This document shows, piece after piece, positions 7,532 through 26,268 of a stretch of DNA of 28,432 nt. The stretch covers positions 1-28,432 of the IMG/VR virus record IMGVR_UViG_3300005529_000083. One strand, written 5' to 3'. The notes beneath the pieces are model-generated. The model saw only the letters and a list, made by a program, of their open reading frames with translations. It was not told where the DNA came from and did no database searches. This DNA comes from a virus (lineage: Duplodnaviria; Caudoviricetes). Numbering within the stretch: the stretch's first letter is position 1; the number at the start of each line of letters is the position of its first letter. The position numbers and the translations under genes were made by a program.

Positions 7532-8418
7532 TACTTCACCTTGGCAAGGGCCTGTGAGATCTTGGTTAGTTCGGTTACTAACTTCGTTGCATCGACGGGA
7601 GCCGAAGGACTACTAGAGAAGGTGTTGGTAAGCTCCGTTGCCAGTAGCTTACGCACGCCGACAAGCTGCGTTGCCGTCAGACCAACACTTGGGGTATCAA
7701 TGGCCGCTTTCAAGGCGTTGAACAGGTCTTGATTGATCTTAATACCAAGCGTGGGAGCCTTCGTGGCAAGCCCCGCATAGATTAGCTGGAGGAAAGAGAG
7801 GGAAGCGGCTTTATCGGCCCCCGTATCGGCCGTGTACGCCGCTTGAAGGGCGATTGTAAGAGGGTCCGTTGGAGCCGGAGGGTTCGGCGGATTTGGAGGG
7901 GTACTCCCTCCGTTCACAACAAGGGTTCGACGAATAACATCCCCGTTCCCCTTGGCTCCCGAAGGAATAATAATCAAGTCCACGGTGCCGGAAGAGGTAG
8001 CGCTCGCCGCTTCGAGCAAGTAAAGGTACTTGCCGTTAAAAGTTCGTGTCTCACACTTGCCCCCTCCCTCGACAAACTTGCCGCGAATCTTCATCGGGCC
8101 GGTATCGGTCGTCATCTTCAACGTGGTCGAGGGGGAAGTGAGCACGATACAGGGCACATCGGCATCAATGACATAGATTTCCTCTCCATTCAGGGGGGTT
8201 GTTGCTGAAGGAAGAGGAGTTGGAGGAGGGGGAGGAGTCGGCTCCACGGGGATTCGCACGGGCGGTTGCGGCGGAGGGACGGGAGCGGGTGGAGTCGGGT
8301 CTTGACGGGGCTCCGCTGCATAAACAGTTGCCTCTTTAACCCCTCCGGTTGTTAGAGGAGCAAGAAGAAGAGGAATACCAAGGACAAAAGCTCCGAATAC
8401 GCCAGCAATTTTAGACAT
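7531..8418 (-). CDS. exported/membrane-anchored proline-rich protein
   Basis: Start at MSKIAGVFGAFVLGIPLLLAP (AGGAG RBS); PTPPAPVPP and PPNPPNPP linkers separate a beta domain and a helical domain. Confidence 0.75.
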   Translation of the reverse strand: MSKIAGVFGAFVLGIPLLLAPLTTGGVKEATVYAAEPRQDPTPPAPVPPPQPPVRIPVEPTPPPPPTPLPSATTPLNGEEIYVIDADVPCIVLTSPSTTLKMTTDTGPMKIRGKFVEGGGKCETRTFNGKYLYLLEAASATSSGTVDLIIIPSGAKGNGDVIRRTLVVNGGSTPPNPPNPPAPTDPLTIALQAAYTADTGADKAASLSFLQLIYAGLATKAPTLGIKINQDLFNALKAAIDTPSVGLTATQLVGVRKLLATELTNTFSSSPSAPVDATKLVTELTKISQALAKVK

Positions 8419-8998
8419 GGGGGGCTCCTGTGGACTGTTGGGAGTTGGTTGGCATGTTCGCCGGTAACTTGGCATCGAGAATCTTGAGCAGAGCCGCTTG
8501 GTTCGTGCTAATCGAGGTAATCGCCGCTGCTCGGTCAGTACGAACTTCACTCATGATGAGGTTAAGCTCTTTGTCGAAGAACTCTCGTTCTTGAGCCGTT
8601 CGCGTTTCAAACAACGTTCGCATCGCCTGACATTCTTTGGCGAAGCTATCAATAATCGTCTGCAAATCCTTGCGATATTCTGCTTGTGCTGCCTGATTAA
8701 GCTTGGAGAAATTATCTTGGGCCGTCTGGTAGACAACCTGTTGTCGGTCTTGAGCCGTTTGGAATCCTGTCTGTTGTCTATCCATCACCGTTTGGAAGGC
8801 TGTTTGCATCCCCGGTATGGTCGTATCGAGCAAGCGCTTGACAATCCATACCATAAGCCCTGTCATAGCCGTAAAGCCAGCTACTAACGCCCCGATTGCG
8901 GTTGTGGGTGTCCCCAAAAGGTCATTTTCCCCCACCAAAAGCCAAGACGAGAGAGCTAGAATCCCTACCATAAGAGAATTCCAAACGGCCCCAACCAT
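8411..8998 (-). CDS. membrane protein with two hydrophobic segments and a coiled coil (holin-like)
   Basis: Start at MVGAVWNSLMVGILAL (TAATG overlap); second segment AIGALVAGFTAMTGLMVWIV; 11-aa repeats FQT..DRQQ. Confidence 0.6.
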   Translation of the reverse strand: MVGAVWNSLMVGILALSSWLLVGENDLLGTPTTAIGALVAGFTAMTGLMVWIVKRLLDTTIPGMQTAFQTVMDRQQTGFQTAQDRQQVVYQTAQDNFSKLNQAAQAEYRKDLQTIIDSFAKECQAMRTLFETRTAQEREFFDKELNLIMSEVRTDRAAAITSISTNQAALLKILDAKLPANMPTNSQQSTGAPHV

Positions 8999-9543
8999 TA
9001 AGAAGCTCCTTCGGCTTGTTTCTTTTCGAGTTCGAGTTGTTCGAGACGCTCTTTCATCGCTTTGATTTCCACCAACGGGTCGAAATGGCTCCGCTGTTGC
9101 TTCTGTTCCATTTCGACCCGCCGTTGCTCCGCTGCCTGGCGTTGCTGGTCGGCTCGTAGTTGTTGGAAGATGTCCCGTTGTCGTCTTTTCTCGGCGTTTT
9201 CTTGCTCCTTCTGTTCGTGCTTCTTCTGCGGCGCTCGGAACTCTTTCGTTAACCGTATGCACTCTTCCAACGGGTAGCTCTCTTCGGGATAATACCTGCC
9301 GTCCGGCTTCATCCGCGCCTCTCCAAGTATCAAGCATAGTTGCCCCCCATCCCGGAACCAATCCTCTTCGGGGAGCAAGTCGAACACTTTCTCCCAGAGA
9401 GAATCCTTGAAAGCTGGGCGAGGGACTAAGACCATCAACGGAGAGTATAAATAGAACGAGCCGGGCGGAACGAGCTTCCGTTGGTAGGTATAGTCTGCTA
9501 ATGGTGTCGTAAAGATTGACAGTTCGTAGTCAACAACGTTCAT
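8998..9543 (-). CDS. hypothetical protein with C-terminal coiled coil
   Basis: 181 aa; ATGA overlap with upstream gene; E/Q/K/R-rich C-terminus. Confidence 0.7.
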   Translation of the reverse strand: MNVVDYELSIFTTPLADYTYQRKLVPPGSFYLYSPLMVLVPRPAFKDSLWEKVFDLLPEEDWFRDGGQLCLILGEARMKPDGRYYPEESYPLEECIRLTKEFRAPQKKHEQKEQENAEKRRQRDIFQQLRADQQRQAAEQRRVEMEQKQQRSHFDPLVEIKAMKERLEQLELEKKQAEGAS

Positions 9544-12471: not shown

Positions 12472-13653
12472 TTACTTGAGAATCACATAGGGACTAACAA
12501 CAGTGGTCGTATCTTGGAGCGTAATCGACTTGGAAACCTGCGGCTTCCCGTCGATGCGAACCCAGATACGGAAGACGGTTTGGAAGTTGCGGAAGTTTAC
12601 ATGGGGTGAAACATCAATCAGGATTTGCATGCGCTCGCCGATGGTATAAAGCCACGGGTCGAAGAGGAGCAAATCCCCTTGGGCTCCAAGAGCCGCAAGC
12701 TTCTCGGACACGAAGAGGGGCCGCGTCATCAAGGTTCCGGCGTTTGCCTTTTCATGGGCATCCATGTTGATAAAGTACGACGGAATCTTGACGATTTGTG
12801 CAAGGCAAGTCGGCGAACAGGCCCAAATCGCTCCCTTCCATGAGTAGGGCAAAAGTGCCGCCCCCATTGCGGCAATGTCTGTAACGGAGATTTGATTGCC
12901 AACTTGTCGAGACACTGTAACCGCAGCGGGGGAGTTGATAATCCCTAGCGGCATGAGTTGGGCAGTTCCTGTCCCTTGCAGGAAAGCGTACTCGGTATAC
13001 CAAGCAGCGGCTTTACCAAAGAGTTTAACGAGGGCATCCTCTCCCGCTGGTCCCGTATCCATGAGGAACTGATTGGAGATAACCGCATAACCGAGTAAAT
13101 CCCATGCTCGGAGTGACATGGAGCGAAACTTGGGTTCGGTCTCTGCTGGCGTTTGTTCCGAGCCCCAAGTGAAAGTGATACCTCCGAAAAAGGGAGAGGT
13201 TCCAGCGGCAGAGGGAACCGTTTCCACGTCGATACGGGGAACCTGGATTTCCCCCGACATCATGGGGATACGATTCGCACGCGGATAGAGGAACGAATCC
13301 TCTGAAATCACTTCAAGAATACGGGTACTGTAGTCTTGGGGGACGAGATAGCCTCCCGCTGTCCCCGTATTTTCCCCCATTGCCGCTTTGACAACTCCAC
13401 TGGTTTTGCACGAGTTGTATTCGGACCCGTAGACCTTGGCGAGCTTGGCTCGGGCTTCATAGCGCTCGCTCTCCTTCGTGGAGCCCGTTCGTAGGACCGT
13501 TTGGAGGTAGTCCGTGAAGGATTCACCGCTCGTCTTCTTCGTGATGGTGTACCCTTCCCCCTCCAAATAGAGCCGCGCCAGGTCGATGAAACCCGGCTGG
13601 CTCTTCGTCGGAAGTTTAGTCGTTCGATCCTTCGGCATGGTAAACTGAGCCAT
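12472..13653 (-). CDS. HK97-fold major capsid protein, paralogue 2
   Basis: KAAMGENTGTAGGYLVP, ETEPKF, ISNQFLMD, AFLQGTG..MPLGI, FRIWVRIDGKP. Confidence 0.9.
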   Translation of the reverse strand: MAQFTMPKDRTTKLPTKSQPGFIDLARLYLEGEGYTITKKTSGESFTDYLQTVLRTGSTKESERYEARAKLAKVYGSEYNSCKTSGVVKAAMGENTGTAGGYLVPQDYSTRILEVISEDSFLYPRANRIPMMSGEIQVPRIDVETVPSAAGTSPFFGGITFTWGSEQTPAETEPKFRSMSLRAWDLLGYAVISNQFLMDTGPAGEDALVKLFGKAAAWYTEYAFLQGTGTAQLMPLGIINSPAAVTVSRQVGNQISVTDIAAMGAALLPYSWKGAIWACSPTCLAQIVKIPSYFINMDAHEKANAGTLMTRPLFVSEKLAALGAQGDLLLFDPWLYTIGERMQILIDVSPHVNFRNFQTVFRIWVRIDGKPQVSKSITLQDTTTVVSPYVILK

Positions 13654-14105: not shown

Positions 14106-15572
14106 TTACGAATGGGCCGTGAAGGTCACAAAGGGAGAAATCTGCCATCCGGTCTGATCAGTAATGACGTTGTTCAGCCACGGCTTGCCATCGCAACGGG
14201 CAATGACGCGCCAAGCGAGTTGGTTATTGCGGAAGAGGTAGTGAGGGCTTACGTCAATTTGCATATCGAGCCGAGTCCCGATGACGTAGCGGCTCCAATC
14301 CACGAGACAGACCGAGCCTTTGACGCTCGCACCGATAGAGGGTAGCTTTTCGGTAAAGAACACTGGCAGACCATTAAAGAAGGCATTCGGCATCTTCATT
14401 GCCGCTGGCCCCTTCTGCTGGTCCCCGTAAGGTGTCATCCACACGAGACGGGAGCCCGTATCGGCCACACCGGCAGCAGTCGTATGGTCAACCATCTGCA
14501 CGAGGTAAGGTAATACGCTCTGGTGCATAATCCAGCAGGCATCATCCCACGAGCGCACTTGCAAGTGAGACATCATGGCCGAAGCATCAGCCAGAGTGAA
14601 ACCGCCGGAGAGGGTTGTTTGGGCCGTCTGGACATAGGTAGCGGGGGCGTTGAGAATGCCCAGCGGCATTGTCGAGCCTGCGCCCTTACCCTGCAAGAAA
14701 GCGAATTCCTTGTACCAAGTGATCGCTTGGCCGAAGAGTTGGGTTAACAGAGCGTCCAGACCGATGCCGTTATCAGCCAGCAGCTGATTGCTCGACACCG
14801 TGTAGAGAACCAAGTCCCACGCGACCCATTCACTCTGACGGAAGGCCGGTTCCGTCTCATTGATGGTTGCCGCTTCCGGCTGCCACTGGGCGAGAATACC
14901 GCCGAAGTAGGGAGAAGTTCCAGCCGTCTGAGCCGTGGTAATGTCGAGCATCGGCCACTGAGCGGTACGGCTATTCATTGGAATAACCTTCGCCCGTTGC
15001 TCGATAAAACCATCTTCGGCTGCGATGGTCAGCAACTCATTCATGAACTGCGGCGGAATGATATAACCGCCCGTCTGGCCGCTCCCTTCGGCAAGAGCCG
15101 TCTTCCTGCGCTCGTTAAGGAGCACTTTACGACTCACACGGTCATAAGAGGGAACACCGTGCGTTGCTGCCTTAGCAATGGTGGAGAAACCGAATTCGGC
15201 TTCGAGCTTTTCATCATCGTAGCTCTCAGCCATACCCATTGACCGAGCCATCGACTTTGCATCAACGTTGCCGGACAGAGCAGCAAGCTTGACGAGCGCT
15301 GGCCCCATGCCGGAGAGGCGAGGGGAACGCCCACTCTTGGTGCGGAGGAGATGTTCTGCCGTCTGGGAGGAGTAAGAAGCACCAAGCTTCTTCAACTGCT
15401 CGACGGGCCATTCCCGAGCGTTATGCTGTGAGTAGGGAGAGACATTCTCCCCACCGAAGACGACACCGGGCGAAGGACCACTCTTGGCCGGTTTGGAAGC
15501 AAGGTCCGTCAGAGCCTTTTTCATCTGGCGGATTTCTTCAATCATCTGAGCCTGAGACAATTCCGCTGGCAT
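14106..15572 (-). CDS. HK97-fold major capsid protein, paralogue 1, with long N-terminal delta-like region
   Basis: KTALAEGSGQTGGYIIPP, ETEPAF, SSNQLLAD, AFLQGKG..MPLGI, WRVIARCDGKP; start set at MPAEL (GGGAG RBS). Confidence 0.92.
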   Translation of the reverse strand: MPAELSQAQMIEEIRQMKKALTDLASKPAKSGPSPGVVFGGENVSPYSQHNAREWPVEQLKKLGASYSSQTAEHLLRTKSGRSPRLSGMGPALVKLAALSGNVDAKSMARSMGMAESYDDEKLEAEFGFSTIAKAATHGVPSYDRVSRKVLLNERRKTALAEGSGQTGGYIIPPQFMNELLTIAAEDGFIEQRAKVIPMNSRTAQWPMLDITTAQTAGTSPYFGGILAQWQPEAATINETEPAFRQSEWVAWDLVLYTVSSNQLLADNGIGLDALLTQLFGQAITWYKEFAFLQGKGAGSTMPLGILNAPATYVQTAQTTLSGGFTLADASAMMSHLQVRSWDDACWIMHQSVLPYLVQMVDHTTAAGVADTGSRLVWMTPYGDQQKGPAAMKMPNAFFNGLPVFFTEKLPSIGASVKGSVCLVDWSRYVIGTRLDMQIDVSPHYLFRNNQLAWRVIARCDGKPWLNNVITDQTGWQISPFVTFTAHS

Positions 15573-15597
15573 TTGCAGACTCCCACTAGGGTACATG

Positions 15598-15903: not shown

Positions 15904-18882
15904 TTAGTTCTTCCCGGTCAACTGAGCGAACATCCGCTTGAAGGAGGCAAATTCCTCGATGACTTCTTTCGCTACCGGCTTAACTTGGGGAGCTTTGCTG
16001 CTGTTGTACGGTGGGCGCTTATCGTTAACCCCTTGAGGAGTTCCACTCCCAACAACCTGTTGCCGACTGCGGCTATCACGTTGGGGTTTTCCTGCCTCCG
16101 ACAGTGTTTCCCCTTCCCCGGAGTTTGATTGCACCTTACCGGATTGGGAAAGAGCCCGACCACCGCCCCCGTTGCGTTGTACCTTGCCGGCATTGGTCAG
16201 TTGTTTTTGAACGGAGCCAAGCCGGGTTGAGTGTTGTTTGGCAACGTTGCGGTATGTCTTGGGAATTACGGTATCGGTAGACAAATCCGCGAGGAATTCC
16301 CCGGCCGCTCCCACGTCATCGACAAGAGACTTGTTGTAGGGAGCCGGCTTCTTGCCTTCATCAAGCTCCTGACTGTGACCGGAACCCTCGATATAAGCCC
16401 CGTCCCCTTCCTTCGGCTTCTTGTTCCCCGGCTTTAGCTCTGCCGGATTGCCCATATCGGTAAGGTCTTTGATGAGATACTTCTTACCATCTTTGGCGAT
16501 ACGGAGCTTGAGGAACTTGACGAAGTATTTCTTGATGAGATGCTTTCGCGTCATCCATTTCCCGTTTTTGGGATGGCGGTAGCGCTCTAGAATCTCTTCG
16601 GTGTCCGCGTCACTTTCGGGTATGCCGCTATCGCCCATATCTGGCCCCTTATCGTAGGGTTCTTGTCCCGGTTGGTCCTGTGGTTCTTCAGCGAAACCTT
16701 GTTCTTGAATCCCCGGTGTGGGGAACATCCCTTGCGCTTCCTCGTCTGGTGTCTGTTGTCCCGCGAAGGGGTCTTCGGGAACGTCGTTCGGCATGGCATC
16801 GGGAGCTTGTTGCGTTCCCATCTGGGGAGGAATGGCCCCACCTTCATTCATCGGAGGGACATCCCCCGCTGTCACCATCCCCGATTCGCCTTGAAGGTTC
16901 GGATCGTTCCCCGTGGTATTGTCCACTTCGAGAGCCTTCATCAGGCTATCCATATCGTGGTCGGGATGATGCTCCGCGAGACCAGCCGCGACATGCTCCA
17001 TTGCTTTCGAGAGGAACTCCTTATGCCCCTCCATATGCTGCCGCATGCCAGGGTTATCCATGTCCCGCAAGCCGTTTTCGATATAATCCATCGCTGCTTT
17101 GTAATGACCATAGAGCGCTGCGGCGAACTTGGCCGAAGGTTTCGGGTTGAAAGGCTCGCTCGCCGATGCCTTATCCACGGCCGGGTTTGCCGGGTCCGGC
17201 TCGAAGGGCTCATCTACCCCGTCCTTCGCTTCAATGGGCGGGTTGTCATCTTCGGGTAGGTCGGGAGTAGCCGGCTCTTCGGGAGTCTCCGCCGTTTCTT
17301 CCGGCGTATCCTCTTCTTCGGTTGCCCCGTCCGGCTTCTCTTCGTTTTCTTCGGCCATCGGAGGTTTCCCCTTCGATTTGATGGATTTTTGGATGAGTCC
17401 TACGCCGTCGCAGTTTGGACAGGAACCGGAACCGTGGCAGGTTGAACAGTCTTCGCCGTCGATTTCGCCCCCGCCTCCGCAAGCGTCACAATTGCCCGTA
17501 GAATTGCACGATTGGCAAGCTTGGTAGCCGTCCGCTTCAGTGTCCGAAAGTCGTCCCCCACCCTTCCCATTCGCTTCTACGGCCCCACTATCGACCAGAT
17601 AACCGCCTGCCTGCCCGGAGTCGGAGTTCATACCTTTTCGACTGGAGATACCCACGGGAGCTACCTGCTGTGTACGTCCGGTATTGATAAAGAACAGAAC
17701 TACTGTTCCGTCACTTTTAACTTCTTGGATAGCAGCGGGTTGACCGTTGTAAGTTACTTTGTCGCCAACTTGCCACTTACCTTTCGGCCGGACGCCAGGG
17801 GGCGGATTAATCGAGGGACGCTTACCGCCCGGCTCCATATCCGCTTGTGTGTTTTTTTTCTTGCCGTTGCAATCGCACATTTTCGCCCCCTTCGGACGGT
17901 TAACCATCGTAGCTCGCATATTAGCCCCGCGACGGTTCGTTATCTTCTCAGCAAGAAAGCTGGCCATACCTGATTGAGAAGAAGACGGCGGACGATAACC
18001 CATCTGGGATAGCGCCGCTTTCAAGTCCTCCTTGGAGGCGGAGCGTACTGTTGCCAGAGCAGAGGTAAGAGCAGAATCCGACATACCGGCAGAGGATTCA
18101 TAGAGAGAAACCAAGCTACTAGCTGACTTTTCCGGCAAAGGACACCAGCCGCCCCAACAACCTTTTGCGTTAGCAGCATAGGCCGAAAGACCCTTTTGCA
18201 GACGTGGCGAGATGAAGGATTTTTCAGAGTCGAGAGCATCGCGGATAGCTCCTGCATTACTCGGGATGCCAACGATACTCCACTCGGTTAGGTCATACGA
18301 CTTGAAGAACCATCCCATCGGCATTCCGTGGGGACGGTCGTTATGGGGTCGAGCCTTCTCTACTTCATCGCGGCGGTAAGCTTCGATGGGTACAAAAGCG
18401 ATGGAGGCAGCGCTAAGGATACCCCGTTTGACCTTGCCATAGACAAACATCGCATCTTCGTCTTCAGTATCGGCGTACCACTTGGCCAAGATGCGGTCTT
18501 CCATCGGCCAAATCGTTACTTCCCCTGCCTGTGAACGACTAACGCCGATGGGAATTTCCCACTGTTGATGTCCGAAGAAAACAACCGGATTGCGGGAATA
18601 GTTTGTTAATACACAACCAGGCGGATAGACAATATCCCCGTCGCGGTCTTCCGAGTAGAGCGAGATTGTGAAAGGGATAGACTTCTCGCTATCATCCGCT
18701 TCCCCGGTCTCCGCCGCACCACTGCGGCCCATACCGAGTGTATTGTCTTTGTACTGGTAGGCGTAATTTTCGCGGAGCGTTGCCCCCATCGCAGCGGGTA
18801 AGCTCCCCGACTTCAAACTTTTGAAGACGGCTTGTTGCCGTTTGGCAATCGCTTCAACTGCCGGATGGAGGCTCACGGGCAT
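15904..18882 (-). CDS. HK97-type prohead maturation protease with very long modular C-terminal extension
   Basis: DRDGDIV, NPVVFFGHQ, PIG, ASIAF, EWSIVGIPSN in aa ~70-210; then SH3-like, CxxCxGxG and acidic segments; AGGAG RBS. Confidence 0.9.
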   Translation of the reverse strand: MPVSLHPAVEAIAKRQQAVFKSLKSGSLPAAMGATLRENYAYQYKDNTLGMGRSGAAETGEADDSEKSIPFTISLYSEDRDGDIVYPPGCVLTNYSRNPVVFFGHQQWEIPIGVSRSQAGEVTIWPMEDRILAKWYADTEDEDAMFVYGKVKRGILSAASIAFVPIEAYRRDEVEKARPHNDRPHGMPMGWFFKSYDLTEWSIVGIPSNAGAIRDALDSEKSFISPRLQKGLSAYAANAKGCWGGWCPLPEKSASSLVSLYESSAGMSDSALTSALATVRSASKEDLKAALSQMGYRPPSSSQSGMASFLAEKITNRRGANMRATMVNRPKGAKMCDCNGKKKNTQADMEPGGKRPSINPPPGVRPKGKWQVGDKVTYNGQPAAIQEVKSDGTVVLFFINTGRTQQVAPVGISSRKGMNSDSGQAGGYLVDSGAVEANGKGGGRLSDTEADGYQACQSCNSTGNCDACGGGGEIDGEDCSTCHGSGSCPNCDGVGLIQKSIKSKGKPPMAEENEEKPDGATEEEDTPEETAETPEEPATPDLPEDDNPPIEAKDGVDEPFEPDPANPAVDKASASEPFNPKPSAKFAAALYGHYKAAMDYIENGLRDMDNPGMRQHMEGHKEFLSKAMEHVAAGLAEHHPDHDMDSLMKALEVDNTTGNDPNLQGESGMVTAGDVPPMNEGGAIPPQMGTQQAPDAMPNDVPEDPFAGQQTPDEEAQGMFPTPGIQEQGFAEEPQDQPGQEPYDKGPDMGDSGIPESDADTEEILERYRHPKNGKWMTRKHLIKKYFVKFLKLRIAKDGKKYLIKDLTDMGNPAELKPGNKKPKEGDGAYIEGSGHSQELDEGKKPAPYNKSLVDDVGAAGEFLADLSTDTVIPKTYRNVAKQHSTRLGSVQKQLTNAGKVQRNGGGGRALSQSGKVQSNSGEGETLSEAGKPQRDSRSRQQVVGSGTPQGVNDKRPPYNSSKAPQVKPVAKEVIEEFASFKRMFAQLTGKN
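16020..16210 (-). repeat. four degenerate 16-aa tandem repeats at the protease C-terminus
   Basis: KQLTNAGKVQRNGGGG / RALSQSGKVQSNSGEG / ETLSEAGKPQRDSRSR / QQVVGSGTPQGVNDKR. Confidence 0.65.
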
Positions 18883-19825: not shown

Positions 19826-20026
19826 TTACTTACTCGATTTGTGCCCAAGAGGGAGTATAGGCTCAGTTCCTTGGTATGGTCCCCACCAAAGATAAGAACA
19901 TTTGCAACATTTATAAATGAGTCCCGGTTTATATGGTTGGATTTCTAAGTAAGCATGAGGGGAAACATCTATACCCCCATCGTGTTTACATTCAACTTCT
20001 ACTTCATCGACTAAACCTTTAGGCAC
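19826..20026 (-). CDS. small Cys/His protein
   Basis: GTG overlapping the MuF stop (TAGTG), GGAGG RBS; C.H...CCKC; AT-richer than flanks. Confidence 0.55.
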   Translation of the reverse strand: MPKGLVDEVEVECKHDGGIDVSPHAYLEIQPYKPGLIYKCCKCSYLWWGPYQGTEPILPLGHKSSK

Positions 20027-20745
20027 TATAAAACCTCCGTCATATCACAAAAACAGTGAGGATGAAGAGGAGGATACTGGATCACCGCGTAAGGGCCTGT
20101 ACCTTTTATCTTAAAGGGCTCGTCTAAGTCCCGTTGTTGGCCGTTCATCGCCAAGCAGCGGTCGCAGGCGTCAGAAGAAGCAAGCCACTCTTTTTTCTTC
20201 ACGATGTCTGCTTGTTCTTTCATCGAGTAGAGTTGCCCCCCGTGCATAAAGCGGCTCGTCTCTGTTGTGGCTATGCGGTGCGCTCGGAAGGGGTCCGCGA
20301 AGATGGTTTGAACCTGGCGGGTCATCAGCTGAAGGCAGTCACCGCGAGGTAATCCCTCGTGGAAGAGTTGTCGAATTTTCTTCATCGACTTTTCAAGGTC
20401 ATCCGTTGCGGTAGCGTTGGTCTCCTTACAAAACTGCATCGTCAACGTATTAACTGCATCGAGTACCCGTGGATTGAAGAGAAAGCCAGACATACGAAAG
20501 AGGCGAGAGGGATTTGGACCCCTCCGCCTCTTCTTTTGCCACAGCCGCGTTACCTGATGGATAATCCCCCGTTGCCAGAGGGCAAGCAGAGGACCACTCG
20601 ACATATCGGCGAGAATCTTAATCCACTTGTCAAGCGGTGGGAGGTTCCCCGCCATCGCCTCATCAAAGTTGATGCGACTAAGAACATCCCGTGTTTGTGC
20701 CTGAAAAACCCACTGAAGGACTTTATTCAGGTCAGAGGGATTCAT
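20026..20745 (-). CDS. MuF / SPP1 gp7-like minor head morphogenesis protein
   Basis: RAHRIATTETSR, KKEWLA..DAC.RC..MNG, PPLHPHCFC. Confidence 0.9.
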   Translation of the reverse strand: MNPSDLNKVLQWVFQAQTRDVLSRINFDEAMAGNLPPLDKWIKILADMSSGPLLALWQRGIIHQVTRLWQKKRRRGPNPSRLFRMSGFLFNPRVLDAVNTLTMQFCKETNATATDDLEKSMKKIRQLFHEGLPRGDCLQLMTRQVQTIFADPFRAHRIATTETSRFMHGGQLYSMKEQADIVKKKEWLASSDACDRCLAMNGQQRDLDEPFKIKGTGPYAVIQYPPLHPHCFCDMTEVL

Positions 20746-21364: not shown

Positions 21365-22840
21365 TTAGTAGGTAATTTTCATATCGCCTGCGTCGTAAAC
21401 AACCGTAAAAGTGCTGTAATCTCCCGAGTAGGTATCACCACCATAGAATTGACCGGAGAGACTATAGCTCCCGTTAGTCACTGTAAAGAGAAGCTCACTA
21501 CTTCCGGTTGGTTTCCCGCCACTCGTTGTCAGGTCGAAAGAGCCGTTAAGCGAGATGTTATGGTCACAAGTCACTGTCCCCCAGTAGCTAGTACCGCTCA
21601 CTGTTTTCTGATTCAGGAAGATTAGGCTATTACTGGTGAATGCCAGGTCTCCGCCTGTAATGTTCAGAGTAACGTTGTGATTAACTGTAAAGTGATTTGT
21701 CAAAGAGGCTGTACCGGCAAATTCGACTTCATAGCTAGAGGTAGTTACTTCAATTGTATCGGTGGAATCTGCCGTCTGGCTGATATTATCGTATTGGCAC
21801 GTCCCACCGAAGAAAGTTACATTCCCCGATGCCTTGAGCTTACTATTCCCGTCCAGATAAAGATACTGTCCCCCTGAACCATACTGGTAATAGGCATAGG
21901 AAGAGGCTCCTAAACCAAAAGTCGAGGTACTTGTGATGTTGAATTGTATTCCGGCATTGATTTCCAATGACTTCTCATTCAGAAAAGCCATCGTACTGTG
22001 GACTAAATCCCCGGAAGCGGTTCCTCCTACTGTCACTGTTCCCTGATTATCAAAGTAAGCTCCGATAGAGTTACCGAGAATACCACCGATGAGACCATCG
22101 TTGCTTGTTGTATTGAAGGACCATGTTCCACCGCTCGCAACGGTGTAGACGGGAGCGTTCTGACCTGTCATTGCTGCAATTTCCAAACTCTCGCTTGTTG
22201 TAAATCCGCCGTAGTTCTCCGTGAAAGTTCCCGCATAGTTCGTTTCTGTGTTGGGACTTGAACCCACATTAACATTAGCGGCGAGGAATTGGTCTGAATT
22301 ATTCAGAATTGCCGCAAAGGTTGAGCCACCCGTAATGTAGACGTTCCCAGTCGCATAGCCGGTTAGTCCTGTGTAGAAACCGATGTTTCCTTCACTCCAG
22401 ACGAGAGAACCCGATTCTAGAACAAAGTTTGAGCTAGAGCCATCGAAAAGGATATTGCCGGAACTCCACGCGGAACCACCCGTAGAAGCATGGACATCTA
22501 ACTCATTGTCAATGTCTAGGTCTTGCCCATAGTTACTCGTATTGATGTTTCCAACAGAAACCGCAGTACCCGGAGTTACACAGTAGGTAGAAGAATTGTT
22601 ATCAAAAACAACGTCGATAGTAGACGAGTTGGGCGAAGCTCCGGGATGGGTCGCTCCCCCAGAAGTTGTTGCCCAATTATTTTTATCTGACCAAAGATGC
22701 TCCGAGCCCGTGTCTCCACCAACCCAATAGAGCGTTGTGTTTGGCGTTAACCGCGTTTCGAGAGCTTCGAGACCGAGCCGAGTTCTGTTCTTCCGCATCA
22801 CAGCACCTTCCCTAACTTGGATTTGAGACCACAAGGACAT
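21365..22840 (-). CDS. planctomycete-type exported beta-helix/adhesin-like protein (start 22840 or 22798)
   Basis: RLGLEALETRLTP N-terminal motif; YWVGG...WSD..NW...P...DVVFD; S/T/G/N-rich beta repeats; AT-richer than flanks. Confidence 0.8.
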   Translation of the reverse strand: MSLWSQIQVREGAVMRKNRTRLGLEALETRLTPNTTLYWVGGDTGSEHLWSDKNNWATTSGGATHPGASPNSSTIDVVFDNNSSTYCVTPGTAVSVGNINTSNYGQDLDIDNELDVHASTGGSAWSSGNILFDGSSSNFVLESGSLVWSEGNIGFYTGLTGYATGNVYITGGSTFAAILNNSDQFLAANVNVGSSPNTETNYAGTFTENYGGFTTSESLEIAAMTGQNAPVYTVASGGTWSFNTTSNDGLIGGILGNSIGAYFDNQGTVTVGGTASGDLVHSTMAFLNEKSLEINAGIQFNITSTSTFGLGASSYAYYQYGSGGQYLYLDGNSKLKASGNVTFFGGTCQYDNISQTADSTDTIEVTTSSYEVEFAGTASLTNHFTVNHNVTLNITGGDLAFTSNSLIFLNQKTVSGTSYWGTVTCDHNISLNGSFDLTTSGGKPTGSSELLFTVTNGSYSLSGQFYGGDTYSGDYSTFTVVYDAGDMKITY

Positions 22841-25635
22841 TTCGCCTCCGAGCGCTCGATAGTCAATCCTTCGAGCCCCGGTACACTATCATTCATCGAC
22901 AAGGGACGGAATGGGTTGATAAGGTAACGTTGCGTTGGCTTATCGAGACTCTCCGAAGGAACTCCCTGATTGCCAACGGTTCCGAGAACCGATTTCAACC
23001 CACGATAATTACCGCCCCATTCATTATCGTAATTGCTCCGCACATCGCCCACGTCTAAAAGGCGTCCTCCCAACCCCTCCCCGCTATCGTCATCCATTCT
23101 CTGGGAGAGAGGGAGGAGAATCCCGTTCGCTGGTCCCGGTTGTCCGCCTGTATGGGGGACGATACCGGCAAAGTCATTCTTCTTCTGACTCTTCCGTCTG
23201 TTTGTCGAGCCAATCGCTGATTGCTTGCGCTTCGTCGTCACCACCGGAGAACTTATCGTTTGGCTTCTCTTCTTCGCGGTCGTCTTTCCCTTCCATTCGA
23301 CTTCCTCTAAATAAATGGTTGTGATAGCCTTCGTCGGAAACGAAGGATGTTCGTAGTTCGTATCTTCTATTTTAACCGGGCGGTAGCGGGTCTTGCTCGA
23401 TTGAATGACTTCGTTCTCACCTGAAATAGAAGTAACACTTTCGACGTACACCCCGCTCTTGGCTTTGATTTTGAAAACAATCGGCTTTTGGTAACTTCCC
23501 GCTTGAGCAAAAGTACCGATGGCAACTCCGGGCTTAACAGTGGTTGAGGTAATGCTCGGCATGGTGTACTCTTTGCCGGAATCCATTGCCTTGCGCACGC
23601 TCTCCAAAACCCTTTCGGCTGATTCATGGGAGAGCTTCATCCCCCGGTAAACATCCACGGGTTCCTCGAAATCGGGAGCTTTTTCAAGGGCACTTTCTAA
23701 CTGGGTCATCAGGTTTTTATGGTAGGTATCCTCGACACACTCGAAGTTAGGAGGGCAACTCCGCATCTTCTTGTTTAGGTCTGCATAAGAGGAACCTGTA
23801 TAGTCTCTAATCGCTTTCATCTGGTAAGAGTTAAGTGTACTTAGATACTTTTTCGATTGTCTTTCTACATGCTTGGGAACCTGAACCCCTTGAGTGTTAA
23901 TCGTCTCTCCGCTAGATTGAACGGGTGGAGACATGCCAGGTTCATAGTTGATAACTTTTGGCTCATTACCCATCTCTTCGTCCGTACTTTCCTCTTGCTC
24001 GGGCTCCTCTTCTTCCTCCTTATCCATGTCTGCATCTTCGTCGGATAAGTAAGGTTGTTTATCGAGAACTTTACTCACGGCGTCTTGTAGCTGTTGTGAG
24101 AAGTCGGTTCCTGCTAGTATGTCTTTGAGAATCTGCCGACCTTCCTTCGTGTTAGGAAGGAGAGACTCTTTGACTCGCTTGGCATCGTTCGTTAGTCCGG
24201 CCGCTTCGAGCGCAGAAACGCCCGCAGCAAGGAACTTTTGTTGCTCTGCCTTCTTTGCTTCCGGGGTTGTAGGGTTGGGCGGTTTCTGCTTCGGCTCGGG
24301 TTGAGTAGCTGTCTCCGTCTTGTTCGAGACTCCCATCATCGCTTGTACGAACTCTGATTTCGTTTTGGCAAGCTCTTGAATAGCTGCCATAGCTTTAGGA
24401 TTCTTCGGTAGCATCCCCATCTTGAAGTTTTCGGCGTCTCCTTCTAGTCCCATGTTTTTGAGCTTGTCGTAAGCCTCTTCTACGAATTGGCCGTATTGCT
24501 GGCTTTCCTCTTCATGACTTGTTGGCTCTTTAGGACTCTCGGGCTCCTTCGGTTTGTCTTCTGTCTTGGGGAGCTTACTCAACGGCTTGTTCGTCATGCT
24601 CTCCGGGCCAGCAGTGATGACACCATTCTCTAGGAACACATGAGTACCGGATGGGTCTAACGTAATCCAGCCGCCTGTTTTAGGGGCGTCTTTGCGGTAG
24701 GTCTTTTGTCGACGTTGGAACGAGTTCACCCACTCGACTACGCGAGAGGGGGTAACAGTCTCCACGTCGGGAAGAGACTTCATGAAATCGACAGAAGGGC
24801 GAAGCTCGCGGTAGAGCGTCTCCGCCTTCTCACGTCTCGCGTTGTAACCGTCTTTCTGGAGCTTGCCCTCTTCGGCATCGCGTTGGAGACGTTGGCGGAC
24901 GACAGTAGACTCATCTGCGTCGAGAACGATGATTGTATGGCCCCGCAGCGTACCCGGAGCCACGAGGAATTGGCATCCTTCAAGGATAGAAGGGGTCTTT
25001 CGCTTGAGAGCCCGACGAACGAGCTTCTTCAAGAGCTTGCGATAACGATGATAGGCTTTTGTCCCCGGCTCGTAGCGCTCGGGATGGTCGATAATATCCT
25101 CCGAACCCATCCATAGCTCGTCTTTATCTACCTTCCATACCGGACGACCAGTTACTTTCGACAGGAGCTTGCTCGTGAAAGTCTTACCTACTCCTGAAGG
25201 CCCCGTGAGGATGATATGCTTCACTCGCGGAGCTTTTGTCTCTCGTCCTTTACCGATGCGCTCTTCAATCTGCTGCTCAATCTCTTCCCACGAGACGTTA
25301 GCATCCAAGCCCCGGTCATCAATGTACAGGTCTGCCGTAATCTTGCGAGAATCGGTCGGTTGATAGTCGTTGTGGTTGATTTCATCGTAAGGGATACGGT
25401 ACTCATCCAACCAATCCGCCACATCGGCCAAGTCATCCCGTGCGGTCCAAATGACGAGACGATAGCCCCGGTCCCAAAGGCGTTCCAGAGCTTCCCTCGC
25501 TCCCTCGCGGGGCTCAGTCTCTTCGAGAACGTACTCATGATGGTATTGAGCAATTGTTCCGTCGAAGTCGATAGCCAACGTCAACGGATGGTCTTCCTTC
25601 TTCTTCAATACCGGGAGACGGCTTTTAAGAATCAT
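22798..25635 (-). CDS. multidomain protein: HAD hydrolase + P-loop kinase + R-S-E ADP-ribosyltransferase
   Basis: LAIDFDGTI / IWTAR / K..ADLYIDDR (HAD); IILTGPSGVGKT, ILEG (kinase); AIRDYT..Y..LN..MR, VYRG, SITSTT, GENEVI (ART). Confidence 0.9.
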   Translation of the reverse strand: MILKSRLPVLKKKEDHPLTLAIDFDGTIAQYHHEYVLEETEPREGAREALERLWDRGYRLVIWTARDDLADVADWLDEYRIPYDEINHNDYQPTDSRKITADLYIDDRGLDANVSWEEIEQQIEERIGKGRETKAPRVKHIILTGPSGVGKTFTSKLLSKVTGRPVWKVDKDELWMGSEDIIDHPERYEPGTKAYHRYRKLLKKLVRRALKRKTPSILEGCQFLVAPGTLRGHTIIVLDADESTVVRQRLQRDAEEGKLQKDGYNARREKAETLYRELRPSVDFMKSLPDVETVTPSRVVEWVNSFQRRQKTYRKDAPKTGGWITLDPSGTHVFLENGVITAGPESMTNKPLSKLPKTEDKPKEPESPKEPTSHEEESQQYGQFVEEAYDKLKNMGLEGDAENFKMGMLPKNPKAMAAIQELAKTKSEFVQAMMGVSNKTETATQPEPKQKPPNPTTPEAKKAEQQKFLAAGVSALEAAGLTNDAKRVKESLLPNTKEGRQILKDILAGTDFSQQLQDAVSKVLDKQPYLSDEDADMDKEEEEEPEQEESTDEEMGNEPKVINYEPGMSPPVQSSGETINTQGVQVPKHVERQSKKYLSTLNSYQMKAIRDYTGSSYADLNKKMRSCPPNFECVEDTYHKNLMTQLESALEKAPDFEEPVDVYRGMKLSHESAERVLESVRKAMDSGKEYTMPSITSTTVKPGVAIGTFAQAGSYQKPIVFKIKAKSGVYVESVTSISGENEVIQSSKTRYRPVKIEDTNYEHPSFPTKAITTIYLEEVEWKGKTTAKKRSQTISSPVVTTKRKQSAIGSTNRRKSQKKNDFAGIVPHTGGQPGPANGILLPLSQRMDDDSGEGLGGRLLDVGDVRSNYDNEWGGNYRGLKSVLGTVGNQGVPSESLDKPTQRYLINPFRPLSMNDSVPGLEGLTIERSEAKCPCGLKSKLGKVL
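23174..23296 (-). CDS. nested out-of-frame acidic 40-aa ORF, candidate ART immunity/partner
   Basis: GAGG RBS inside the LEEV codons; MEGKDDREEEKPNDKFSGGDDEAQAISDWLDKQTEESEEE. Confidence 0.6.
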   Translation of the reverse strand: MEGKDDREEEKPNDKFSGGDDEAQAISDWLDKQTEESEEE

Positions 25636-25641
25636 GGGCGA

Positions 25642-26268
25642 TTACCAACGGTTAGTGACAGAAGCAGAAGAAGCGAGACGATACGCGGATACCAATTGTG
25701 AAACTTTCTCAACGCGGTAGTCATAAAGAGCCAGGATAGCGAGAGCCTTCTCAATCCGGTTAATTATAACTTGGGAAACGCGAATCTGTTGCTCGGCAAT
25801 GGCAATCCTCGACTCGGTAAGAATACTCAAAATGTCCTCTGCCCCGCTCTTGGGGAGGAAGCGTCCTTTGTGTTTGTGCAACTGTTTGAGGAGCTTCGTC
25901 GTCCGGGTAATGATTTTGTTGTGTTCGGCTTTCGCATGGAGAATTCCTTTCTTCATCAGGTCCACAATGTCACACTGTTCTACGGAGCTACCCTGTTCGT
26001 CCACCTGGACGGTAATCGCGTAGATTGCATCCGAGAGAATTTGCAGTACCGCCCCTTGCTCGGGGTCTCCATTCGCATTCGCCTTGCCCGTTATTTCGTC
26101 ATACGCCTCTTGTACTTCCTTGAACTTCTCCTCCGCTTCGAGATTGCCGGCGTTGCGGTCGGGATGGTGGAGACGGGCAAGGGCTCGATACTGCTTCTTT
26201 ACCCTCTCGGGAGGAGTGGTTGCTTCGACGCCGAGAACTTCATATGCGGGCCGCTTCTTACGTGGCAT
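25642..26268 (-). CDS. J-domain (DnaJ-like) protein
   Basis: YEVLGV...[17 protein letters not shown]...[14 protein letters not shown] with intact HPD; helical C-terminus. Confidence 0.9.

Follow-up and report, generated by a model that had tools for sequence, protein, structure and literature searches.

The window, a 28,432-nucleotide (nt) stretch covering all of IMG/VR virus record IMGVR_UViG_3300005529_000083 (positions 1 to 28,432; Caudoviricetes), contains on its minus strand a 945-amino acid (aa) multidomain open reading frame (ORF; 25635..22798) with an ADP-ribosyltransferase (ART) domain. A second ORF of 40 aa (23174..23296, ATG to TGA, minus strand) is nested in the -1 frame of this gene, at the point where related ARTs end. 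The 40-codon frame is probably a translated gene, and its product, predicted to lie in the nicotinamide adenine dinucleotide (NAD) cleft of the ART, probably acts as an immunity peptide that became nested as the ART lost its stop codon.

The original prediction described a GAGG-N7-ATG within the codons for LEEVEW, opening a 40-residue ORF with 17 Asp or Glu residues, and these features are exact on the minus strand. The Shine-Dalgarno (SD)-like GAGG (23304..23307, minus) precedes the peptide ATG by 7 nt and a possible slippery heptamer by 13 nt. Its duplex with the presumed anti-SD sequence has an energy of -8.1 kcal/mol, and nine ordinary gene starts of the window range from -5.9 to -11.7 kcal/mol. 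A codon model based on 25 other window genes scores the peptide frame at 0.451 bits per codon, which is equalled by 0 of 2700 off-frame windows of 40 codons, and scores the main frame over the same bases at 0.079. The peptide also ranks first by codon score among the 60 nested off-frame ATG ORFs of at least 30 aa in the genes of the window (runner-up 0.17), although this score partly reflects its D/E-rich composition. The main frame over the peptide encodes a K/R/S/T-rich linker (23176..23298, minus), which had been proposed to be a shadow reading. The codon scores agree with that proposal, and when the peptide is recoded synonymously, 8389 of 10000 trials leave the main frame open; therefore, the linker needs no selection. 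Two further candidates at the peptide stop were rejected. An ORF in the third frame scored as non-coding (-0.187), and a +1 shift was dropped for want of a re-pairing codon. No identical or close protein to the peptide is on record among shorter proteins or in exact look-ups.

The ART domain (23299..23898, minus, ending ...IYLEEV) matches PF03496, the family of R-S-E, CTX-like arginine ARTs, with an E-value of 8.9e-15 and 55 bits against a curated cut-off of 23.4. The signature of CTX-like ARTs is given in PMC8120803 as a catalytic Arg, an STS-like motif and ExE. The corresponding residues here are R664, S697-T-T and E740-x-E742 (R85, S118, E161 and E163 in the numbering of P0002), and R, ST and ExE are invariant in all 10 aligned ART rows. 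The domain is of the R-S-ExE type and is predicted from these residues to be an ADP-ribosylating enzyme.

The three closest ART proteins (36-38% identity) terminate in VVYLEEV*, VIYLEEV* and LIKLEQLV*, so that homologous ARTs do end at LEEV or its equivalent, as had been suggested. A set of 21 ART loci (L-numbers below) was assembled from 5 of 5 viral contigs, 1 genome, 11 loci chosen as distinct groups from 40 phage matches, 3 of 28 further phage matches and 1 of 23 plasmid matches. The distance from ExE to the stop is 27-54 aa in all 24 relatives found through the ART (these loci plus the three proteins), where for L019 and L047 the ExE pattern matched twice and the match fitting the others was taken (the alternative value for L047 is 70). 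In eight of eight further loci, found through the peptide motif discussed below, the distance is 30-38 aa. The window differs from all 32 measured relatives, since its ART is followed by a small ORF at the usual place and yet the frame continues for a 166-aa extension absent from relatives, for an ExE-to-stop distance of 206 aa. The codons GAA TGG (23293..23298, minus) directly after LEEV occupy the site of the stop in relatives, and a single base change in either codon would create a stop overlapping the peptide ATG.

Small ORFs are a regular feature behind related ARTs. A same-strand ORF of 31-136 aa begins about -17 to +70 nt from the ART stop in 19 of the 21 loci. The stop of the ART and the start of the next ORF overlap in L003, L005, L015, L039, L053 and L070, and the ART runs briefly into the small ORF in L006, L007, L013 and L016. 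In nine of the 21 loci the ART is followed by a short peptide with the pattern D-[KR]-[FY]-x-[YW]-x-[ED]-G-D-hydrophobic (the DKF motif), which bears out the expectation that similar peptides would be found behind related ARTs. Six of these are near the consensus (L004, L005, L006, L015, L016, L017) and three are loose (L003, L007, L013). They start between -17 and +18 nt from the ART stop, and the ATG in the window overlaps the codon after LEEV. The other ten post-ART ORFs are unrelated larger proteins; those of 62-136 aa after phage ARTs in L014, L018-L024, L048 and L049 form several unrelated groups and are further candidate immunity families. The small ORF in L019 is unannotated, and the one in L049 is followed by an ADP-ribosylglycohydrolase.

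The DKF peptides occur in phages of Streptomyces, Gordonia, Bacillus and Paenibacillus as well as in phages of uncultured hosts, and two are annotated as hypothetical genes of cultured phages (Araceli gp10, Forza gp81). Six of the sequences had no match in PHROGs, six had none in NCBIfam, and ten compared with Pfam gave two weak matches below the cut-off. In the literature under open licence (titles and the beginnings of abstracts, with the motif itself not used as a search term) no description of the DKF peptide class or of a nested ART antitoxin was found. When the scan was reversed and began with the motif, an ART was present within 1.2 kb in 2 of 20 matches with Tyr and 8 of 36 with Trp. 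Of the Trp-form matches, 27 fall inside long unrelated proteins, and seven of the eight in ORFs below 120 codons lie directly behind an ART (two of the seven are the same peptide). The position after the Asp is Lys in 12 and Arg in 6 of 18 peptides. The acidic character that had been noted holds for the window peptide but does not extend to the family, in which the ART-linked DKF members have 10% to 32% D/E; by sequence, the trait of the family is the DKF motif and not acidity. The window peptide shares D14-K15-F16 and an acid at K+5 (D20) with the class. Its motif score of 7.4 bits is rank 5 of 37991 six-frame 13-mers.

A structural estimate of the interaction was obtained by co-folding ART residues 8-201 of P0002 with the 40-aa peptide, using custom alignments (including one of the related peptides). 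The ipSAE score is 0.84 (0.85, 0.82 and 0.84 in separate runs) and the best of three controls reaches 0.02. The mark used for such predictions is reached by 116 of 157 solved complexes and by 2 of 215 mismatched pairs, a calibration that is only roughly applicable here, where custom alignments were used. The runs share at least 85% of contacts, and the partner pLDDT is at least 67. The predicted interface consists of ART residues 84-90, 118-120, 161 and 163, which include catalytic R85, S118-T120, E161 and E163, and of peptide residues 13-31 and 33-34. The contacts predicted with most certainty link the peptide helix 23-34 to ART residues 93-114. The putative ART-binding part of the peptide, from co-fold and motif alignment, is residues 13-31 (N-DKF-SGG-DDE and a helix with I26, W29 and L30; 23204..23260, minus). 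The model places the peptide in the NAD cleft, over the catalytic residues, in support of the proposed antitoxin role; the contact partner of ExE in the peptide is not specified by the output. A sequence search at an E-value of 0.001 gave no solved structure for the ART.

Several observations weigh against an immunity peptide of the DKF type that was nested by loss of a stop. Two loci, L046 (phage Orisa03) and L047 (phage TurboVicky), have an ART without a small same-strand ORF behind it, and 12 of the 21 loci lack a DKF peptide. The window peptide has no aromatic residue at K+3 (G18) and no GD-hydrophobic strand (D21-E22-A23 instead), features from which the three loose members likewise depart. 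Its motif score is reached by 1430 of 20000 shuffles (p 0.07) with the nine ART-found peptides, and by 284 of 20000 (p 0.014) with 18 peptides, half of which were picked by the pattern itself. The window peptide is therefore a divergent look-alike of the DKF class and not a core member, as judged from its motif. The co-fold used the alignment of related peptides and could echo solved complexes of ARTs and inhibitors with a like fold (e.g. Tre1-Tri1). In the study of the phage toxin Bxa, one of two small neighbouring ORFs was unprotective, as reported in the available part of PMC11699363. The main frame is also open for 125 codons beyond the peptide, for which the chance is about 0.007 at the off-frame stop rate, and a tail that is weakly coding without a good start of its own is less well explained by a plain accident.

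The tail in question (22798..23097, minus) is an orphan stretch of 99 codons in the main frame, weakly coding-like, with no good SD and with a stop that overlaps the next ATG (TGATG). It has no stops in the main frame and eight and five in the other two frames. Among 1.84 billion representatives it has no homologue except itself and one repeat protein, and there was no usable match in the Atlas. A separate orphan gene that was caught in frame by chance would explain the tail. A C/T- and G-rich hairpin is predicted around ATG 23097 (23065..23117, minus). It resembles repetitive extragenic palindrome (REP)-like palindromes but is no stronger than shuffles (z -0.31 for 23060-23180) and is not repeated in the window. 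Also within the tail, at 22890-22920, is an inverted repeat GATAAG-N15-CTTATC about 100 nt upstream of the next gene, which could be an operator.

The mechanism favored here is based on the ORF, its SD-like site and codon bias, and on relatives, where the ART stops at this point and is followed by a small coupled gene that in many cases has a D-[KR]-F motif. Peptide residues 13-34 would cover the catalytic Arg, the STT and the ExE. By comparison with Bsi, the immunity protein of Bxa, the Lys of DKF may replace the acceptor Arg and the acids may replace the phosphates of NAD. In the producing cell, the peptide may hold the ART inactive during synthesis of the ART-bearing protein for the head; after delivery to a new cell, the enzyme would be free of inhibition. 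Packaging and delivery of the ART protein are suggested because of its place in the head module and the proposals made in the available text of PMC5576092 and PMC9503650. A single base change at the old stop could have opened the ART frame, which would then read across the peptide's stop-poor shadow and on into the downstream orphan frame; the peptide would be left dependent on its own GAGG-N7-ATG. The peptide is likely an active-site-blocking immunity peptide that works like Bsi, judging by analogy and the co-fold model, and no relation between the two is implied. Loss of the ART stop is the simplest history of the nesting. The idea that the immunity gene was retained as a fully nested overlap would imply a maintained design, but with 0 of 32 measured relatives nested, a recent stop loss fits equally well.

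The peptide could also be a real partner of the ART without being an antitoxin, such as a chaperone, a packaging adaptor or a preferred substrate, or the ART may not be toxic to bacteria. In L039 (motif at 1201) and L053 (motif at 806) a large downstream protein, of 413 and 246 aa, respectively, has the DKF motif as its N terminus and is coupled by ATGA to the upstream ART; the protein in L053 is itself a second ART. In L037 (1099-1269) a 57-aa DKF peptide precedes the ART gene, between it and a terminase-like gene. These arrangements fit a partner of another kind, as do the many members with Arg, a possible acceptor, at the K/R position, and the presence of the family in cultured phages of Streptomyces, Gordonia and Bacillus, where a need for immunity is an assumption. 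However, the model puts the peptide over the catalytic residues, the K/R position is more often Lys than Arg, and blocking of the active site is reported for Bsi (PMC11699363) and for the Tri1 extension (PMC8120803) in the portions of these papers that were available. A role other than immunity is therefore unlikely.

A second alternative is a programmed -1 frameshift on the heptamer G_GGA_AAG (23284..23290, minus), aided by the same GAGG. The heptamer is located two codons after the ART and 13 nt behind GAGG, and after a -1 shift the ART would continue into the peptide (...LEEVEWKGK then DDREEE...EEE), giving an ART with its inhibitor in cis. There would also be a zero-frame form with the basic linker and the tail, and a free peptide from the ATG, and the read-through would be a selected design. 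The heptamer is in the right phase and is the only G_GGA_AAG among five in-phase slippery heptamers in 5704 codons. The available text of PMC5009743 rates G_GGA_AAG highly prone to shifting in E. coli, places the SD for -1 shifts at a spacing of 9-14 nt, and provides a precedent in an insertion sequence (IS) element where one SD serves both initiation and shifting. The stop-free tail without a good SD and the fusion of the motif to large proteins in L039 and L053 are also in line with a shift. In a relative, 7 of 13 listed differences are at third positions of the main frame, with 6 synonymous there and 0 in the -1 frame, although these are 13 of 30 differences in one low-depth contig and the excess is not significant. 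No 3' stimulatory structure is predicted (z -0.16 to 1.17), however, and K-rich peptides yield such heptamers by chance, with 4 in 420 codon pairs of nine related peptides and an early position in the ORF in one of the nine. Given SD-N7-ATG and two further codons, a 13-nt spacing arises automatically, and read-through occurs in 0 of 32 relatives. Such a frameshift is distinctly unlikely. About the same low probability is given to a fuller scheme, a three-way switch in which one SD starts a free micro-antitoxin and drives a -1 plug in cis, the zero-frame ART, with its basic linker and orphan tail, is left unplugged, and the peptide is one of a widespread but unannotated class of pseudo-substrate inhibitors of phage ARTs, 30-60 aa long.

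The nesting may be an artefact or a dead end. Assemblies built from the same reads could all carry one wrong base, or the mutant could be transient, and in the population the ART would then stop normally in an ordinary toxin-immunity tandem. One base separates the junction from the arrangement in all relatives. The window may itself derive from the sole sequencing run that covers the junction (X1, depth 9), and rare variants are not visible in contigs. On the other hand, the X1 contig matches 21000-27000 with 0 differences and 0 gaps, the 945-aa protein is recorded in three collections (though all may stem from one data set), and the frame continues beyond the peptide to the TGATG junction. 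A relative in run X2, from another study (depth 3-5), is gapless over 23310-23460, 23141-23292 and 22765-23107; it keeps 23141-23292 with 6 differences (depth 3.4), which favors the immunity gene, and 23293-23309 is uncovered among 26 of its 34 pieces. An assembly indel was rejected, as neither the X1 nor the X2 records have a gap. No close relative came from viral contigs, searched with the ART or the tail alone, or from junction patterns, genome contigs, cultured phages, shorter proteins or exact look-ups. Of the junction-pattern matches, L002 is the contig of the window itself and L001 falls by chance in an unrelated gene cluster; L045 is likewise a chance match. An artefact or dead end is quite improbable. 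It is still harder to credit that the acidic frame is a chance by-product of a real basic linker, for which the stop-poor A/G-rich DNA in both frames, the absence of an identical or close protein on record and the shuffle p of 0.07 speak, since the codon score, the start at the usual stop site, the SD, the DKF motif and the co-fold all favor the peptide frame.

The gene that carries the ART and the putative immunity peptide is part of the minus-strand head and neck region that makes up the window. The sequencing run that best matches the window is a soil metagenome and may be its source. Upstream of the ART the 945-aa protein has a HAD-type phosphatase-like domain (aa 13-130; 25246..25599, minus; phrog_1238 with an E-value of 2.9e-30, and NF046079 under its cut-off), a P-loop kinase-like domain (aa 141-267; 24835..25215, minus; PF13238 with an E-value of 1.3e-07) and a low-complexity middle. 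Genes for MuF (20026-20745), a prohead protease, two capsid proteins and adaptors follow on the same strand by Pfam and PHROG profiles, and the ART gene thus sits in the head morphogenesis module. The original description of the ART as a polymorphic toxin agrees with this context alone, as the ART protein itself has no MuF domain: its N end is HAD, and the MuF family PF04233 matches only 20026-20745 and is not among the best 5 of 8 families for the 945-aa protein.

A DnaJ-domain gene (25642-26268, minus) is directly upstream of the ART gene. The gene between the ART gene and MuF (21365-22798, minus) encodes a 477-aa, low-GC, G/S/T/N-rich protein without a family match in Pfam; its likely true start is the ATG that overlaps the stop of the 945-aa ORF. 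The start of this protein resembles what is presumably a planctomycete export motif, and a planctomycete host is a guess only. The head module has two complete HK97-type capsid genes (12472-13653 and 14106-15596, minus) with a 127-aa acidic ORF between them, and a 992-aa prohead protease (15904-18882, minus) with a long extension of CxxCxGxG repeats and acidic low-complexity stretches. Two long same-strand ORFs (8411-9361 and 8998-9543, minus) overlap by about 360 nt, and the first likely begins further down. A contig of 304 bases in run X3, from another study, is identical to 23933-24236. None of the listed RNA data sets contains the window sequence, and no promoter or terminator consensus and no Rfam match of weight were found in it.

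Among the literature found, Bsi is the one described binding-type immunity protein for phage head-associated ARTs, and such ARTs are common. The recurring DKF peptide of 30-60 aa bears on the standing proposal that small ORFs after MuF-type toxins are immunity genes. If the immunity reading is correct, the DKF peptide would be a minimal active-site inhibitor of arginine ARTs and could allow such ARTs to be cloned. The copy in the window suggests that a coupled toxin-immunity pair can become fully nested in one step and vanish from gene calls.

The closest known system is Bxa-Bsi from a Bacteroides stercoris prophage, as described in the available part of PMC11699363. It also pairs an R-S-ExE ART of a phage head module with an adjacent small, non-enzymatic binder that is modelled in the active site. 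Bsi co-purified with Bxa and gave moderate protection to E. coli, for which K89 and E92 were required. In the authors' model K89, followed by Y90 and E92, pairs with catalytic E820, an arrangement that may be much like K15-F16 and the nearby acids of the window peptide. This likeness is based on the description of Bsi and not on sequence comparison. Bsi has a globular, helical fold and at least 94 aa, carries the motif near its C end and is encoded by a separate gene, whereas the window peptide is a nested, mostly low-complexity product of 40 aa. Bxa is fused to MuF and accompanied by a hydrolase (BAH), whereas the window ART protein has no MuF and no hydrolase was found in the window.

MuF polymorphic toxins, which are likewise encoded in the head module, carry their toxin domain at the protein end. 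Among 191 of their genes, 89.4% are followed by an ORF of less than 150 aa that was proposed to confer immunity, and 14% are ARTs; the available text of PMC5576092 defines no peptide family. In the window, by contrast, the MuF gene is separate and the ART is behind HAD and kinase domains and no longer C-terminal. In Tre1-Tri1, according to the available part of PMC8120803, the toxin is an antibacterial R-S-E ART, and a short extension of the immunity protein occludes its active site. That extension belongs to an ADP-ribosylhydrolase and the toxin is a secreted effector, whereas the candidate here is a free-standing phage micro-peptide. Phage polyvalent proteins likewise combine several enzymatic domains, including ART, in one head-adjacent protein that is proposed to be packaged and injected, but no nested inhibitor gene appears in the available text of PMC5512222 and PMC9503650. 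The -1 frameshifts of lambda g-t and of IS elements share G_GGA_AAG, an SD 9-14 nt upstream and, in the IS case, one SD for start and shift, according to the portion of PMC5009743 that was available; neither conservation of the site nor a 3' stimulator is evident here, and the product would be a toxin-inhibitor fusion rather than a chaperone or transposase. A phage ART with a small binding immunity protein is of an already known kind, and what appears to be new, from the open-licence literature searched, is the DKF peptide class and its fully nested copy.

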